A model generated the notes under the pieces. The model did no database searches and was not told the DNA's origin. It worked only from the letters and a program-made list of their open reading frames with translations. A program made the translations under genes and the position numbers. This document shows positions 2,976-46,245 of a DNA stretch of 64,000 nt, piece by piece. Numbering within the stretch: position 1 is the first letter of the stretch; every line of letters starts with the position of its first letter. Origin of the DNA: Escherichia phage vB_EcoM_IME537; sequence record NC_054921.1; one strand, given 5' to 3'.

Positions 2976-3007
2976 AATTTCCTCATTCAAGTTTTAGTGT
3001 AAATTAT

Positions 3008-3025
3008 AAAGGGCCGAAGCCCTTT
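3008..3025 (-). other. intercistronic C(UUCG)G hairpin followed by U-rich tract (terminator or RNA stabiliser)
   Basis: AAAGGGCCGAAGCCCTTT between genes 45 and 44. Confidence 0.4.
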
Positions 3026-3026
3026 A

Positions 3027-3713
3027 TTAAAAGTCGTGGGTAGAATCAGCTTCAAGAGCTACTACATAATTCGCGTGTTCACCTTCAAATTTAGCAGCAC
3101 CTTGTTTACCTTTTGCCCAGAGCAGAAGTTTATAATTTCCTGGTTGCATTTTCATATTTGCCATATTGATAATGAAATTAAATGTATTTTCACCATCATA
3201 ATCACCAAGAGTCAAAGAATATTTAACACGAGTCAAAGCAGAATCTTCTACTTTATTAAAACCGTTAATTACGATTTTACCTTCTTTTACTGTGATAGCA
3301 ATTGTATCAATCTGCAGACCACGAGATACACGCAATAGCTGTTGAAGGTCTTCAGCTTTAATTTCAGTAACAACAGATGCTACCGGGAATGGAATTGGTT
3401 TATTAGGAGCAACTACTGTACTCGGATCGGCTGCTGGCCAAAAAATTGTTGAACGGGCATCAGCAATTTTAATATTACCATCTTCTGACTGGGAAATTTC
3501 TGCATCATCATTAACTAGAGACAGAATACCGAGAAAACCGTTCAAATCGTAAATTGCTACATCAAAATCAATAGTGTCAGAAATATTTGCTTCCGCATAA
3601 GTTGTACCATTAACCGCGCGAGTCATAATAAATTGACCGGATTTAAGCATAATACCAGAGTTAATAGTAGCGAAATTTTTAAGCAGAGCAGTAGTATCTT
3701 TAGACAGTTTCAT
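3027..3713 (-). CDS. 45: sliding clamp gp45
   Basis: 228-aa ORF, ATG start; sequence as remembered for T4 gp45. Confidence 0.93.
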   Translation of the reverse strand: MKLSKDTTALLKNFATINSGIMLKSGQFIMTRAVNGTTYAEANISDTIDFDVAIYDLNGFLGILSLVNDDAEISQSEDGNIKIADARSTIFWPAADPSTVVAPNKPIPFPVASVVTEIKAEDLQQLLRVSRGLQIDTIAITVKEGKIVINGFNKVEDSALTRVKYSLTLGDYDGENTFNFIINMANMKMQPGNYKLLLWAKGKQGAAKFEGEHANYVVALEADSTHDF

Positions 3714-16069: not shown

Positions 16070-16607
16070 ACTCATAAGCTTGGAATGCATCGTATACGTC
16101 TTTTTCTGTTTTAGATTGGGCATAATTCAATGCATCAGCGATTTGCCATTTTTCTGCATCCTCAATATGTTTTGCATAGGTGCGTTTAACATAAGGAGAA
16201 AGTACTTTATCTACATTCGCAAAAGTCGTTCCGCCATATTGATGAGAAGCAACCTGCGCAGTAATTTGTGCCATAATTGCAGTAGCAACGCCAATTGATT
16301 TAGGAGTTTCAATCTGCGCATTACCAAGCTTAAATCCGTTCTCAAGCATTCCTTTTAAATCTACTAAACAACAATTAGTAAATGGAAGAGCAGGGGAATA
16401 ATCAATATCGTGGAAATGGATAATTCCGCTTTCATGCGCTTTCATAATAAAAGACGGGACCATATTTTTGGCAATGTGTTTAGACACAATACCAGCCATA
16501 AGGTCCCGTTGAGTTGGAAAAACACGAGAATCTTTATTAGCATTCTCGTTTAAAAGGTCTTTATTAGTTTTATGAATCAATCCTTCAATTTCTTTTTCAA
16601 TTGTCAT
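16070..16607 (-). CDS. nrdD: anaerobic ribonucleoside-triphosphate reductase NrdD, exon 1
   Basis: ATG 16607; joined with exon 2 gives 605 aa across junction AYE|YEVNTL. Confidence 0.8.
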
Positions 16608-17077
16608 TTTAAACTCTTTCTAAGCTGCTTCTTAAATGAAGCTATTAATTGTGTTTTGGTGTCAGATTCATTATATTCAAATCCTCTTTGAAGCATCTCA
16701 GCTATCATTTCCTCTTTTCCTAAACGAGAAAATTCCTTTGATTTATCTCCAACAAAGTTAGGGTGAATATTATTTTGGGTGTAATCGGATTTTAAATAAG
16801 TAAGTAAATTTTCTAACCATTCAAGATAATCAACGCCTTGTCCCTTTAAGCCAGAACGATTAAATTTGTGCTTCATTTGACCTTCCGCAGCATTGCAGAG
16901 ATTACAGAGCAATCCACGTACCTTTCCTGCTTTTGGTCCATTTAATTCATGGTCATGGTCAAGGTGATTAGCTTGAACATCAGGATTTAGTTCTCGTTGG
17001 CAAATTAAGCATTTACCGTTTTGTGCATTATAAAATTTTTGTTTTTCTTCTTTGTATAATTTGCCAGTCAATAACAT
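16604..17077 (-). CDS. 49: endonuclease VII (Holliday junction resolvase) gp49
   Basis: 157 aa; sequence as remembered for T4 endo VII (zinc-binding CxxC motifs). Confidence 0.92.
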   Translation of the reverse strand: MLLTGKLYKEEKQKFYNAQNGKCLICQRELNPDVQANHLDHDHELNGPKAGKVRGLLCNLCNAAEGQMKHKFNRSGLKGQGVDYLEWLENLLTYLKSDYTQNNIHPNFVGDKSKEFSRLGKEEMIAEMLQRGFEYNESDTKTQLIASFKKQLRKSLK

Positions 17078-35398: not shown

Positions 35399-35612
35399 AT
35401 TTGACTTCCTCACCAGTACATAAATCGTATTCAACTAAACGAATAGGTTCATGAATTCCATATCCTTGAACAGAAATTTCTGTCGTAGGATAAATTCCAT
35501 CAATATCGCCCATATTCCACGCTTCATTAAATTGCTGTTCGCCTGAATTACTAAACCACTCGGCGAAAGCATTTAGCACATCTTCAGAACCTTCAATAAT
35601 TATCTTTGCCAT
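35391..35612 (-). CDS. vs.5: hypothetical protein (T4 vs.5 position)
   Basis: 73-aa ORF. Confidence 0.4.
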   Translation of the reverse strand: MAKIIIEGSEDVLNAFAEWFSNSGEQQFNEAWNMGDIDGIYPTTEISVQGYGIHEPIRLVEYDLCTGEEVKYD

Positions 35613-35974
35613 TACAAACTCTCAGTAAAGGTACGAGCAATAACGTCGCGTTGCTGTTCCGGAGTCAGAGAGTTAAAGCGAACTGCGTATCCGGATACAC
35701 GGATGGTCAGCTGCGGATATTTTTCCGGATGCTTAACTGCATCTTCCAGAGTTTCACGACGCAGAACGTTTACGTTCAGGTGTTGACCACCCTCAATTTT
35801 AACTGTAGGCTGTGTTTCAATTTCAATTTCACGGGCATGCAAACCATAGAAAATTTCTGGGTCTACAAAAGAGTCCTCTTTAAAGGTTTTAGAGACAATA
35901 ATTCGTGCTTGAATACCATCTTCAAAATAAATAGTACCTTTATGTGTGCCTTCAAGAATTTGATATGCTTTCAT
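35612..35974 (-). CDS. vs.6: autonomous glycyl-radical cofactor (GrcA/YfiD-like)
   Basis: 120 aa; C-terminal glycyl-radical motif RVSGYAVRF. Confidence 0.75.
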
Positions 35975-35981
35975 ATAAACC

Positions 35982-36311
35982 TCAATTAGAAAATAAATTT
36001 ATCCAAGATTGTTCTTTAATTAAAAATGGCTCAGAATCATATGCCATTAAACTCTGTGTGATTAGTCCTTTAAAAGGCCCATCAATAAATTCCATGGTAA
36101 AGTATGGAATTTTATTCATTAATCTCGCATTAGGAGCAGTACATAAAACTCTGCATCCTTTGAATACGCCTTTTTGCAATTTGTATTGCTTAGGATAAAA
36201 TTCGCTTAAAATGTTATTTTTTGCCAAAATTTCAAAATGATTCACCAATTTATTTTTAATAGTTTTTGGTGAAAAATAAAGATATTCGAAAAGCTGAGTG
36301 TCTGTCATCAT
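35982..36311 (-). CDS. vs.7: hypothetical protein (T4 vs.7 position)
   Basis: 109 aa from ATG 36311, overlapping the upstream stop. Confidence 0.4.
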
Positions 36312-36850
36312 TGCATTCCGATTACGAAAAACTGTGGACGAGTAATACCACCAATGCAGCATTTACTATTGCAGCAGTGTTGCACAGTTTCAATATGAAT
36401 ATCGTAAATTTTATCCATATCAGGAGATTTAACAGGCTCATCGATTATATACAAAATTCGAGAAAGCGATAAACCTCTGAACTTGCTACCTCTATTACCA
36501 ACAAAACTACGGACAGAATCAGTAAATAAACGGAATCGAATATCATCGCTAGAATAACGAGAAAATTCTTTTTTAATGCGGCCCGCAGAAATTTTAGCGT
36601 AAGCTGAAGTATTAGAAAGAACAATAACTGTTCCACCATCATACAACCAATTAGCGGCAAAATTAGTTACTGCAGTTGATTTACCAGATTGTCTGCCACC
36701 ATCTAAACGAAGTGTACAATATTCTTTAAATAAATGCGACGAATCAGGTACATAAAATCCACTATTACAAATTTCTTCTACTCTAGCATCAGAATGGTGT
36801 GTAAAAGCATTCATCAGGGATAGATAAGGACCAGTTAAAAATGTTCTCAT
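36308..36850 (-). CDS. vs.8: small P-loop NTPase
   Basis: Walker A GGRQSGKST, Walker B ILYIIDEP; start set to ATG 36850. Confidence 0.45.
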   Translation of the reverse strand: MRTFLTGPYLSLMNAFTHHSDARVEEICNSGFYVPDSSHLFKEYCTLRLDGGRQSGKSTAVTNFAANWLYDGGTVIVLSNTSAYAKISAGRIKKEFSRYSSDDIRFRLFTDSVRSFVGNRGSKFRGLSLSRILYIIDEPVKSPDMDKIYDIHIETVQHCCNSKCCIGGITRPQFFVIGMQ

Positions 36851-36991
36851 TTTATTCTCTCTAAATTTGGGCCATTCCATGGCGCATGAATTGTCCATTT
36901 CTGTATTTACCCATTACCGCACTTGGGCTCGACCTTATTACAGGTTGGCGGGAATCCCTCACAGAATCATGAGGTCCAGGTTGTTCCCATG

Positions 36992-37465
36992 TTATTTGAA
37001 CGATTTAACGTACTGAATAGAACCTTTACTATTCACGAAAGCGATTTTACCATTTTTATTATACATGGTAGCAGTACGCTGATAACCATAAGTTTGTTTA
37101 CCAGATTGATAACCAACTAATGCGAAATTATCTTCACCCATTTTATTCTGTTTAGCGCGAATACGTTCATGTCCATGCGCCATAAGAACCTTAGCATCAC
37201 CAGTTGCAATGGATCGACGAGTTTTTTCATCTTCAACTGTATTAACAAAATCATCAAATGAATCAAATTTAGCATGAGATTTATTATACAGTTTTCCATC
37301 TACTGCATAATTATATCCCTGTACATCCATCTCAACTTCTGTACCATCATCTAATACAGCAGTAATTTTCTGTCCTTTTTTAAATTTCAAAAGATCAGTA
37401 AAAGATTCAGCAATAATTTGAGAATTAATAGCTGCTTCAGTAATAAATTCTTGATATGTTTTCAT
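36992..37465 (-). CDS. internal-protein-like gene with N-terminal capsid targeting sequence (ipII/ipIII locus)
   Basis: 157 aa; N-terminus MKTYQEFITEA matches the T4 internal-protein targeting sequence. Confidence 0.65.
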   Translation of the reverse strand: MKTYQEFITEAAINSQIIAESFTDLLKFKKGQKITAVLDDGTEVEMDVQGYNYAVDGKLYNKSHAKFDSFDDFVNTVEDEKTRRSIATGDAKVLMAHGHERIRAKQNKMGEDNFALVGYQSGKQTYGYQRTATMYNKNGKIAFVNSKGSIQYVKSFK

Positions 37466-37508
37466 ATGTTTCCTTTAAATGTAAATATTTTAATTAGTAA
37501 CTGTGAAT

Positions 37509-37538
37509 ATACTATCACAGTTCTAGGAGAAAGTAAAC
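37509..37538 (-). promoter_or_regulatory. sigma70-type early promoter within an inverted repeat, upstream of the internal-protein-like gene
   Basis: GTTTACT-N17-TAGTAT; flanking ACTGTGA / TCACAGT. Confidence 0.5.
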
Positions 37539-37542
37539 AACT

Positions 37543-38073
<531 letters not shown>

Positions 38074-38529
38074 TTAAAAGAGGTTGTTCATTATTCGGTA
38101 AAGTGAAGGACCCATCACATATTGCCACTGAGTACGAGGAATAAGAGCAAAAGCGTCCATCTCTGGAATCATAACGCCATCTTTATTTTCAAAATAAGAC
38201 TCGCAATGGCAATTTCTAAACATCTCATGCTCTACTGGAATCGTATAATAAAATAACTGTAAGTCTTTATTACTAGAATATTTAAATACACCTAGGTCTT
38301 CTAGAAGGTCTGGATTATAATTGCTAAAACCAGTCTCTTCTAAACATTCTCTTCGTGCTGCATCTAGTACGCTTAAATCAGAATTTTCTACGCGGCCCTT
38401 TGGGATATCCCAGCGATGTGCCATCATTCCAGGCTTACGAGAACCAGTAACCCGTCCCATGAATAAATCTTTATCTTCGGTCATAAAGATAATACCAGCT
38501 GATAGTGTTTTCATTTTAATTTCCTGCAT
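38074..38529 (-). CDS. nudE: Nudix hydrolase NudE
   Basis: 151 aa; Nudix box GRVENSDLSVLDAARRECLEETG; an alternative ATG at 38514 has a better SD. Confidence 0.8.
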   Translation of the reverse strand: MQEIKMKTLSAGIIFMTEDKDLFMGRVTGSRKPGMMAHRWDIPKGRVENSDLSVLDAARRECLEETGFSNYNPDLLEDLGVFKYSSNKDLQLFYYTIPVEHEMFRNCHCESYFENKDGVMIPEMDAFALIPRTQWQYVMGPSLYRIMNNLF

Positions 38530-38999
38530 TCAGTGATAAAGTTATTTAAATTTTGAGTATATTTCTTTTCATCAAAAATCTTTTGTTGTCTGCGTAGCCG
38601 CCATGGCATTTCAATGAACGTGTACCATATCCCAGATAATATTGCTGCTGTAAAAATATTAACAAGTATGGTTAAAAGAATCCAATCTCCTATTCTGTCC
38701 ATTGGATTTTTTATAAAAAAGTAAAATACGAATGATGTCACAGGAAGACTAATAATATACCACAGAATCATAATCTTATCTGTGAACCAATCAGCGTTCG
38801 TTAATTTAGCGCGACCATTATGAATACACACGAATTTATCATCTGTTGCAGTAGATGGCTTAACTGGTTGATATCCCATTCTAAACTCCCTAATCAGCAA
38901 ATTTTTCATATCTTCGGAACAGCCATTCCAGTCAACTCTATCAACTGGAATGCCATCATCCCCATCATCTAAATCATACCAGCGAGTTTTTAAAATCAT
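38511..38999 (-). CDS. membrane protein, tandem paralog 1 of 3
   Basis: 162 aa; transmembrane segments; C-terminal FITECRK. Confidence 0.5.
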   Translation of the reverse strand: MILKTRWYDLDDGDDGIPVDRVDWNGCSEDMKNLLIREFRMGYQPVKPSTATDDKFVCIHNGRAKLTNADWFTDKIMILWYIISLPVTSFVFYFFIKNPMDRIGDWILLTILVNIFTAAILSGIWYTFIEMPWRLRRQQKIFDEKKYTQNLNNFITECRKLK

Positions 39000-39358
39000 C
39001 TGATTTTCCTACAATCACTTACAAACTCTTTCATTGATTCATTTTCAATATAAGACATGTAGTTATTATATTCTTTTAATTGTATTTTGTAATCCTTTTT
39101 TCTTTGCCAATTTATTTTAAAATTATCATAATGAAAATATAACATGGTACCAAAGAATGAAAATAATGAAATCGCTATAGTAAAACGAAGTTCACTCCAA
39201 ACCTCTGTTATAATTGCTGAACCATCGATGTTTAAAATAATACAGTCAATCATTAATCCAATAAGACTACCCGCAAGAGCTGTAAATACTGATACAGCAA
39301 GAATTAATAGTGCCTCAGGAAACGAATATTTGACTTTATTTAGTTTTGGCTTTTGCAT
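38996..39358 (-). CDS. membrane protein, tandem paralog 2 of 3
   Basis: 120 aa; C-terminal FVSDCRK. Confidence 0.5.
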   Translation of the reverse strand: MQKPKLNKVKYSFPEALLILAVSVFTALAGSLIGLMIDCIILNIDGSAIITEVWSELRFTIAISLFSFFGTMLYFHYDNFKINWQRKKDYKIQLKEYNNYMSYIENESMKEFVSDCRKIR

Positions 39359-45677: not shown

Positions 45678-45911
45678 TTATTTTTTACGAAAAATTGATT
45701 TATTTTCTGCTGCCCATTTTTCAATAACTGCAGCAGGACCAGTAACAACAATTTTATCACCGTAATCTTCTGCGGCGAGTTGACCGAAATTATCTAATGC
45801 ATCACGAAGAACTCCATGAGGCATTTCACCCATTTTATCTTTCTTACCAGTGTAAATAAACTCAACTTTTACATCAGCCGCTTCATTGATAAATTCTTTG
45901 AAAGTTTTCAT
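45678..45911 (-). CDS. internal-protein-like gene (ipI locus) with capsid targeting sequence
   Basis: 77 aa from ATG 45911; N-terminus MKTFKEFINEA. Confidence 0.5.
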   Translation of the reverse strand: MKTFKEFINEAADVKVEFIYTGKKDKMGEMPHGVLRDALDNFGQLAAEDYGDKIVVTGPAAVIEKWAAENKSIFRKK

Positions 45912-45987: not shown

Positions 45988-46245
45988 TTATTTCAAATCT
46001 TCTAATCGTTTCTTCATCTTAGAACCATTTTTAGCAATTTCTCCTGCATCGGAGCATAATGCTAAAAGTGCTTTAACTTTAGTTTGGTCTCCTTTAAAAG
46101 ATGAAGGATCGACTGCAGCAGCAAGTTCTTTAATACGAGAGAAAAGACGCTCAGCTTCAGCTAAAGCCATTCCAAGCTTTACTTCCATACCGTGAGAAGA
46201 TTCAGTGATAGTAGTTTTTGTAGCAAACTCTTTGAAAGTTTTCAT
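45988..46245 (-). CDS. internal-protein-like gene (ipI locus) with a degenerate targeting sequence
   Basis: 85 aa; N-terminus MKTFKEFATKT lacks the xEA cleavage context. Confidence 0.5.
   Translation of the reverse strand: MKTFKEFATKTTITESSHGMEVKLGMALAEAERLFSRIKELAAAVDPSSFKGDQTKVKALLALCSDAGEIAKNGSKMKKRLEDLK

Follow-up and report, generated by a model that had tools for sequence, protein, structure and literature searches.

The stretch of DNA analyzed here, 64,000 nt from the genome of Escherichia phage vB_EcoM_IME537 (NC_054921.1; hereafter, the window), carries a single full gene between the lysozyme gene e and a gene resembling T4 vs.8, a 157-aa ORF beginning MKTYQEFITEA. Both the ORF list and tblastn searches agreed on this point with the earlier note, in which the ORF had been described as the only gene between e and the vs.8 position. 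Read along the minus strand, the order is nudE (38074..38529), e, a 77-nt spacer, the 157-aa ORF (ip4), a 141-nt spacer, the vs.8-like gene, and vs.7. The two genes adjoining these spacers form conserved flanks; the vs.8-like protein is 82% identical to residues 26-219 of T4 vs.8, and vs.8 is annotated with 180 aa in phages PD112, SA20RB, and MLF4. The phage is a Tequatrovirus, and its DNA is 97-99% identical to that of its closest relative, PD112, yet mosaic relative to it. The features of the locus, together with two genes at the ipI locus that are considered at the end, are listed in table 1.

Table 1. Features of the ip4 locus and of the ipI locus, in window coordinates
Feature	Position	Strand	Remarks
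Lysozyme gene e, conserved left flank	37543..38037	minus	97% identical to T4 e; Pfam Phage_lysozyme
T4-early-type promoter	37509..37538	minus	-35 GTTTAC, 37538..37533; 17-nt spacer; -10 TAGTAT, 37514..37509
Inverted repeat AACTGTGA / TCACAGTT	37499..37522	minus	8-bp arms, 37522..37515 and 37506..37499; 8-nt loop
Ribosome-binding site AAAGGAAA	37469..37476	minus	3 nt upstream of the ip4 ATG
ip4 CDS, internal head protein Ip4	36992..37465	minus	157 aa, incl. stop codon; ORF list and DUF7412
Capsid-targeting sequence MKTYQEFITE, codons 1-10	37436..37465	minus	ends in prohead-protease motif I-x-E, then A
Candidate second protease site I-A-E, then S21, codons 18-20	37406..37414	minus	at the end of a predicted disordered linker; motif scan
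Conserved RNA-like motif, core CCTGTAAnAAGGnCnAGCCnAAGnGCGGTAA	36898..36968	minus	directly downstream of ip4, in spacer 36851..36991
vs.8-like gene, conserved right flank	36308..36850 (longest ORF from 36898)	minus	180 aa from MRTFLTG
Internal-protein gene, ipI locus	45988..46245	minus	MKTFKEFATK; PHROG 3499, E 1e-49
Internal-protein gene, ipI locus	45678..45911	minus	MKTFKEFINEA; PHROG 8111, E 2e-51

The 157-aa ORF corresponds to Ip4, an accessory gene already known from the T-even phages and named in 1994. The Pfam family DUF7412 (PF24183) covers residues 1-157 of the 157 residues of the product (E 5.7e-96; 319 bits against a cut-off of 27), as does PHROG 3155, "internal virion protein" (E 6e-102, 339 bits). 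The protein is 99% identical over its full length to UniProt Q38388, "Ip4 [Enterobacteria phage K3]," and 100% identical to the protein encoded in phages T2, RB3, RB18, RB33, and HY03. Compared with the Ip4 of K3 and the T-even phages, to which it is 99-100% identical, it has the same targeting sequence and the same position beside e, and shows no substantive difference; from the cluster representative P0001 it differs by one residue (N138 vs. S138). The gene names Ip4, ipIV, and "internal head protein 4" are used in the records of ime09, Kha5h, and SA20RB, and the records annotated Ip4 or ipIV encode proteins 97-99% identical to that of the window. In a tblastn search of 50,697 phage records, Ip4 was encoded in 469, of which 289 showed at least 99% identity, whereas IPIII was found in 261; Ip4 is thus more widespread than T4 IPIII. 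The carriers, roughly 470 sequenced phages in all, infect Escherichia, Shigella, Klebsiella, Salmonella, and Yersinia, with homologues about 70% identical in Klebsiella and Salmonella T4-like phages. The Pfam family, the UniProt entry, the identity with the T2 protein, and the 469 records together refute the proposal that the gene is novel. A literature search on DUF7412 and ipIV returned nothing beyond the figure legend of a T2 preprint, in which the name ipIV is used, and searches pairing Ip4 with GmrSD or with T4-like found no papers.

We addressed the arrangement of the locus by comparing the interval between e and vs.8 among related phages. The order e-ip4-vs.8 without denV was observed in the window, PD112, SA20RB, and T2; the order in T4 is e-ipIII-ipII-denV-vs.8, and that in MLF4, teqskov, and fPS-90 is e-denV-ip4-vs.8. 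The locus of JS10 holds ipIII, one ORF without a name, denV, and a further internal protein, and Ip4 and IpIII are found together in Klebsiella phage Roth16. The block GGGAACAACCTGG... marks the right end of the variable region, following the denV stop codon in T4 and the ip4 stop codon in the window. The e-vs.8 interval of the window is the T2-type configuration of the known polymorphic ipII/ipIII locus, one of two polymorphic IP loci, the same as in T2 and differing from T4 by ipIII-ipII-denV, and the T4 order, against which the earlier note had implied an unusual arrangement, is one among several configurations. The description of the locus as hypervariable holds; the variability is not newly marked by this phage, since later papers credit the polymorphism of the IP locus to Repoila et al. 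1994 (PMC12373910; PMC4122927). Indeed, ip4, its family, the locus polymorphism, the promoter/stem-loop cassettes described below, and the absence of denV in T2-type phages were all previously documented.

These comparisons bear on the reading that denV-ipII-ipIII gave way in this phage to a novel internal-protein-like effector specific to its lineage. T4 does have three genes where the window has one, and the body of Ip4 is unrelated to IPII and IPIII; against this, hundreds of genomes, that of T2 among them, encode an identical protein, which already has its own Pfam family and a UniProt entry under the name Ip4, ip4 occurs in more records than ipIII, and the T4 order is one of several. Because Ip4 coexists with denV in MLF4 and with IpIII in Roth16, it is not a replacement for these genes, and we regard this reading as extremely improbable.

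The claim that the window contains no denV-like ORF was upheld. With T4 DenV as the query, tblastn found no denV in the window apart from one match inside gp49 and no match in the complete PD112 genome. The match inside gene 49 (16604..17077), which encodes endonuclease VII, lies at 16619..16765 on the minus strand, spans 49 residues at 43% identity (DenV residues 56-101; E 2e-4 in a small database), and was absent in the PD112 search; it is probably a chance match rather than a denV homologue. Across phages, denV was observed in 1119 records, and in Tequatrovirus it occurs in two allelic forms, one of about 90-100% identity and one of about 78%, the latter being the form that adjoins ip4. Given this distribution and the two allelic forms, the absence of denV in the window represents a common presence/absence polymorphism. 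The greater UV sensitivity of T2 relative to T4 is a long-standing observation, attributed to the missing v (denV) function.

The sequence relationship of Ip4 to the T4 internal proteins is concentrated at the N-terminus. The targeting sequence, MKTYQEFITE, differs from the MKTYQEFIAE of T4 IPII and IPIII at 1 of 10 residues, and in both cases is followed by A; the recognition of the ORF as an internal-protein gene with a capsid-targeting sequence was accordingly confirmed. Together with the protease site, this element, MKTYQEFI(A/T)E, and a small basic product are among the features that Ip4 has in common with T4 IPI, IPII, and IPIII. With the targeting sequence included, IPII aligned with Ip4 at 31-33% identity over 77-79 residues (tblastn and blastp), with E-values from 1.7e-4 to 7.5e-6 that come from tiny databases, and the alignment with IPIII was limited to residues 1-13. 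When the first 11 residues were removed, the best match to Ip4 had an E-value of 0.22 for IPII and 9.1 for IPIII; the apparent similarity disappears and was thus carried by the targeting sequence. In the window and in the complete PD112 genome, tblastn with DenV, IPII, and IPIII revealed nothing beyond this shared sequence and the chance match in gp49, and in PD112 neither ipII nor ipIII gave a match past the targeting sequence.

On the strength of the identities over 77-79 residues of IPII and 13 residues of IPIII, Ip4 might be taken for a diverged orthologue of one or the other. This is very improbable given the E-values of 0.22 and 9.1 obtained without the targeting sequence, the confinement of the PHROG matches to other internal-protein families to the N-terminus, and the different Pfam family. 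Ip4 appears, from these comparisons of sequence, to be neither an IPII nor an IPIII orthologue, showing no similarity in the mature protein; nor did the ORF prove to be a simple ipIII orthologue with denV, ipII, or ipIII located elsewhere, an outcome that would have overturned the earlier interpretation. The "divergent body" ascribed to the protein is therefore apt in one sense, as the part past the targeting sequence is unrelated to IPII and IPIII, and misleading in another, as the protein is a full-length member of DUF7412 identical to that of T2.

The targeting sequence ends in I-T-E followed by A, in agreement with the prohead-protease site (L/I-x-E, then A/S), and in the T4 record X04567 residues -10 to -1 of IpIII are annotated as a removed signal peptide. 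In an alignment of the Ip4 family (14 homologues, 61-99% identity), both E10 and E20 are invariant; the position at -2 from E20 is hydrophobic (I, L, or M) in all 14 members, and E20 is followed by S or A. An AlphaFold model of Ip4 (pLDDT 77.5, pTM 0.72) predicted residues 10-19 to be disordered (pLDDT < 50) and a compact alpha/beta domain to begin at about residue 21. As E20 is invariant and lies at the end of a disordered linker that precedes the folded domain, a second trimming of Ip4 at this residue is plausible on the model. The mature protein was computed to be basic (pI ~9.1), with a mass of ~15-16 kDa. The structure prediction that had been suggested as a check thus produced a model of an alpha/beta domain, and its only match was Ip4 itself: a Foldseek search against viral models returned one real match, the Ip4 of K3 (Q38388; TM 0.87), a Foldseek search against the PDB gave no match below E 0.37, and a profile search against solved structures gave none below E 0.5. 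The predicted fold of Ip4 is, on this model, one with no known match outside Ip4 itself.

The spacer between e and ip4 is nearly identical to the region before T4 ipIII, with a deletion of 10 nt in the window. It contains a promoter that fits the T4/PST consensus TTTACW-N17-TAYWAT of the PeSL (promoter-early stem-loop) cassettes (PMC4122927) but for one -10 position, and the record of phage SA20RB lists an early promoter at this site. The promoter had been placed inside an inverted repeat spanning 37509..37538; a promoter does lie there, but the arms of the repeat are those given in table 1, and of the promoter elements the hairpin loop contains the -10 hexamer only. As RNA, the hairpin had a predicted free energy of -12.2 kcal/mol (z = -3.86), and 0 of 200 shuffled sequences was as stable. 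Between T4 and the window, the stem changes from AATTGTGA/TCACAATT to AACTGTGA/TCACAGTT, a compensatory T-A to C-G replacement for which MLF4 provides a G-U intermediate. A module of GTTTAC promoter and hairpin also precedes T4 ipIII, T4 ipII, T4 denV, and MLF4 denV, and to judge from the sequences the ip4 copy and the copy before T4 ipIII are orthologues. The block AAAATATTTACATTTAAAGGAAACATATGAAAACATATCAAGAATTTATT is present before T4 ipII as well, and a near-identical block stands before MLF4 ip4; T4 ipIII has only the 3' part of this ribosome-binding-site block, from TTTAAAGGAAACATATG. The promoter and hairpin followed by the AAAATATTTACATTTAAAGGAAACATATGAAAACATATCAAGAATTTATT block is the arrangement found before the internal-protein genes of the locus.

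Consensus hexamers, 17-nt spacing, a stable stem-loop, and repeats at cassette boundaries are all present at ip4, and the promoter/hairpin is a known PeSL cassette of the type described by Arbiol 2010 (PMC2839356) and Comeau 2014 (PMC4122927). Similar observations at the IP locus are attributed to Repoila et al. 1994 by the latter paper (PMC4122927). Like the PeSL cassettes, the ip4 module combines an early sigma-70-like promoter (TTTACT-N17-TAGTAT) with a stem-loop between accessory genes of a hyperplastic region; it differs in that the -10 hexamer lies in the hairpin loop and that no T run follows the hairpin. In SA20RB the hairpin is annotated as a terminator overlapping the promoter. A generic terminator scan of 36200..38200 called no terminator, which is explained for the ip4 hairpin by the absence of a T run; the hairpin is a putative terminator or 3' stabilizer for the e transcript. 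A generic promoter scan was at chance level (10 sites vs. 9 expected) and missed the T4-type GTTTAC promoter. Among its sites is a sigma-70-like one with 10 of 12 matches (TTATCA, 16 nt, TATAAT; 37058..37085, minus strand), which falls within ip4 toward the 3' end and precedes the RNA-like motif by ~90 nt; given the chance-level yield of the scan, we place no weight on it. Two late-promoter motifs, TATAAATA, are found upstream of e (38071..38064 and 38058..38051). Thus, ip4 would be transcribed early from its own promoter, and, as the hairpin has no T run, the two late promoters would probably add late transcription by read-through.

Taken as a whole, the explanation that we favor, and hold to be very likely, is that the ORF is ip4 in a T2-type locus and that its product is packaged, trimmed by gp21, and injected, with an anti-defense role by analogy. 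If Ip4 behaves as is established for the T4 proteins, its first 10 residues would direct it into the scaffolding core of the prohead, where the prohead protease gp21 would cut after E10 and possibly again after the invariant E20; the mature basic protein would stay in the head and enter the host with the injected DNA. We infer the presence of Ip4 in the mature head, its processing, and its injection from the targeting sequence; virion proteomics for Ip4 was not found in the literature, and the paper on Yersinia phage fPS-90 contains no proteomics. By analogy with T4 Ip1, Ip2, and Ip3, the injected protein could neutralize a host defense that acts on incoming glucosyl-hydroxymethylcytosine DNA; Ip4 is most likely a packaged, protease-trimmed, and injected anti-defense factor. 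At the level of the locus, the repeated blocks of promoter/stem-loop and targeting sequence would recombine with one another and so exchange the cassettes ipIII, ipII, denV, and ip4, which would account for the different cassettes in different phages.

The suggestion that the protein is a likely injected effector of unknown target is in keeping with the literature, according to which internal proteins are packaged via the targeting sequence and injected with the DNA (PMC12373910). Of the T4 proteins, Ip1, Ip2, and Ip3 inhibit one GmrSD-family type IV restriction enzyme apiece, with no cross-protection, and neither T2 nor T6 has Ip2 or Ip3 (PMC12373910). IPIII is needed on ECOR17 and acts in the cytoplasm without the targeting sequence (PMC9391042). 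Like Ip4, the T4 internal proteins are encoded by non-core accessory genes at the same polymorphic locus with the same type of promoter and stem-loop; they differ in showing no similarity to Ip4 past the targeting sequence, in their Pfam and PHROG families, in the absence of a fold match, and in being injected GmrSD inhibitors, whereas ip4 was negative in the published tests of GmrSD variants. In those tests, ip4 to ip10 gave no reproducible inhibition against a GmrSD panel for which 15 groups were synthesized and 8 were active (PMC12373910). Moreover, T2, a carrier of Ip4, is restricted by the GmrSD of ECOR17 and of ECOR21 (PMC12373910). Because of these negative tests and the restriction of T2, the GmrSD analogy is unproven for Ip4.

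Ip4 could accordingly be packaged and injected and yet be directed at a defense other than GmrSD, or be a basic, DNA-associated core protein without a specific target. We consider this a serious possibility but a somewhat doubtful one: all three characterized T4 internal proteins are GmrSD inhibitors, the diversity of GmrSD is far above that of the tested panel, with its 15 synthesized and 8 active groups, and, as regards the absence of a specific target, the invariant columns of Ip4 across 61-99% identity suggest a specific interface. More specifically, Ip4 may counter a defense outside the tested GmrSD subtypes, possibly not of type IV, with a fold lacking known relatives; we judge this unlikely, although far from negligible. 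If it were true, the target of Ip4 would expose a widespread defense/counter-defense pair, given the ~470 carrier phages. Returning to the preferred explanation of an injected anti-defense factor, Ip4 is the orphan of the group, GmrSD targets having been identified for the injected proteins Ip1, Ip2, and Ip3. Since it is more widespread than IPIII and has no assigned target, Ip4 is a reasonable candidate for a directed anti-defense screen.

The 141-nt spacer downstream of ip4 is relatively GC-rich, is 97-100% identical among T4, T2, MLF4, SA20RB, and the window, and is more conserved than the flanking genes. It contains a conserved RNA-like motif that is separate from ip4 and constitutes the right boundary of the variable cassette region. 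By blastn, the spacer element was found in 1031 phage records, with 76-83% identity in Dhakavirus, Gelderlandvirus, and Klebsiella, Yersinia, and Citrobacter T4-like phages. Unrelated phages, namely Pseudomonas phage PsgM04F and the rV5-like phages Murica and HdK5, share a 43-nt core at about 92-95% identity. The motif adjoins or sits within a tRNA gene cluster in Murica, PsgM04F, and contig L032, and lies beside tRNA genes in IMG/VR contigs of unrelated phages; in contig L035 it is followed after ~100 nt by a hairpin and T run that reads as a rho-independent terminator. Every T4-like locus has a vs.8 homologue after the motif, including those in which the protein is no more than 36-44% identical. 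The core pattern was absent from 185,579 bacterial and archaeal species (one genome each). An Rfam scan of 35500..39000 at E <= 1 gave no match, and a scan of six motif loci with Rfam 15 gave tRNAs and chance matches only.

A three-helix structure of the motif fits 97% of cells, and slid controls were all at 48% paired or less. Two pairs of the closing helix covary with no exceptions (CG 16 / GC 4 and CG 11 / GC 5 / UA 4), and in the first hairpin a single pair goes from AU to GC. A covariance model found a single copy in the window (75.9 bits), at the position given in table 1. In an IMG/VR T4-like contig (L026; 5085..5266, minus strand), a canonical copy (79.8 bits) and a diverged one (25.8 bits) lie in tandem upstream of the vs.8 homologue; the third helix of the diverged copy differs in sequence and pairs by eye (CCG-CGA-CGG), in a region that the model alignment gaps. 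The leading idea is that the motif is a structured RNA, either a leader of vs.8 or a stand-alone small RNA. In the T2 record PV648364.1, designated "escape mutant," vs.8 is split into three small ORFs (2998..3650), and the motif carries a G-to-T change (AATAAGG to AATAATG) at an otherwise invariant paired position, which breaks the pair; these changes hint that the motif and vs.8 may be functionally linked. A covarying, phage-only motif absent from Rfam, located beside ip4, may be worth more than the ip4 finding.

In T4, the counterpart of the ip4-vs.8 spacer is annotated as the first ~40 codons of vs.8. The T4-annotated N-terminus, MRDSRQPVIRSSPSAVMGKYRNGQFMCHGMAQ, corresponds in the window to a separate 33-codon GTG ORF (36861..36962, minus strand); MLF4 and SA20RB, like the window, have a stop in this frame after 33 codons, and their vs.8 begins from MRTFLTG, and the main vs.8 ORF of the window (36308..36898) starts in a frame other than that of the T4 N-terminus. 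The T4 extension, which overlaps the RNA-like motif, may reflect a fusion peculiar to T4 or an error of annotation. The vs.8-like protein belongs to PHROG 1488 and shows weak similarity to the ATPase of the terminase large subunit (PHROG 2, E 1.9e-6), and a P-loop-like motif, GRQSGKS, can be read from its sequence. In a 2026 preprint, T4 vs.8 is reported to activate the defense sensor EcAvs2 and to be toxic when co-expressed with it (bioRxiv 10.64898/2026.04.30.721860).

Two further internal-protein genes of the window, each beginning with a variant targeting sequence, are located at the ipI locus (table 1), where one internal head protein gene is annotated in PD112. Thus, the ipI locus also differs between close relatives.
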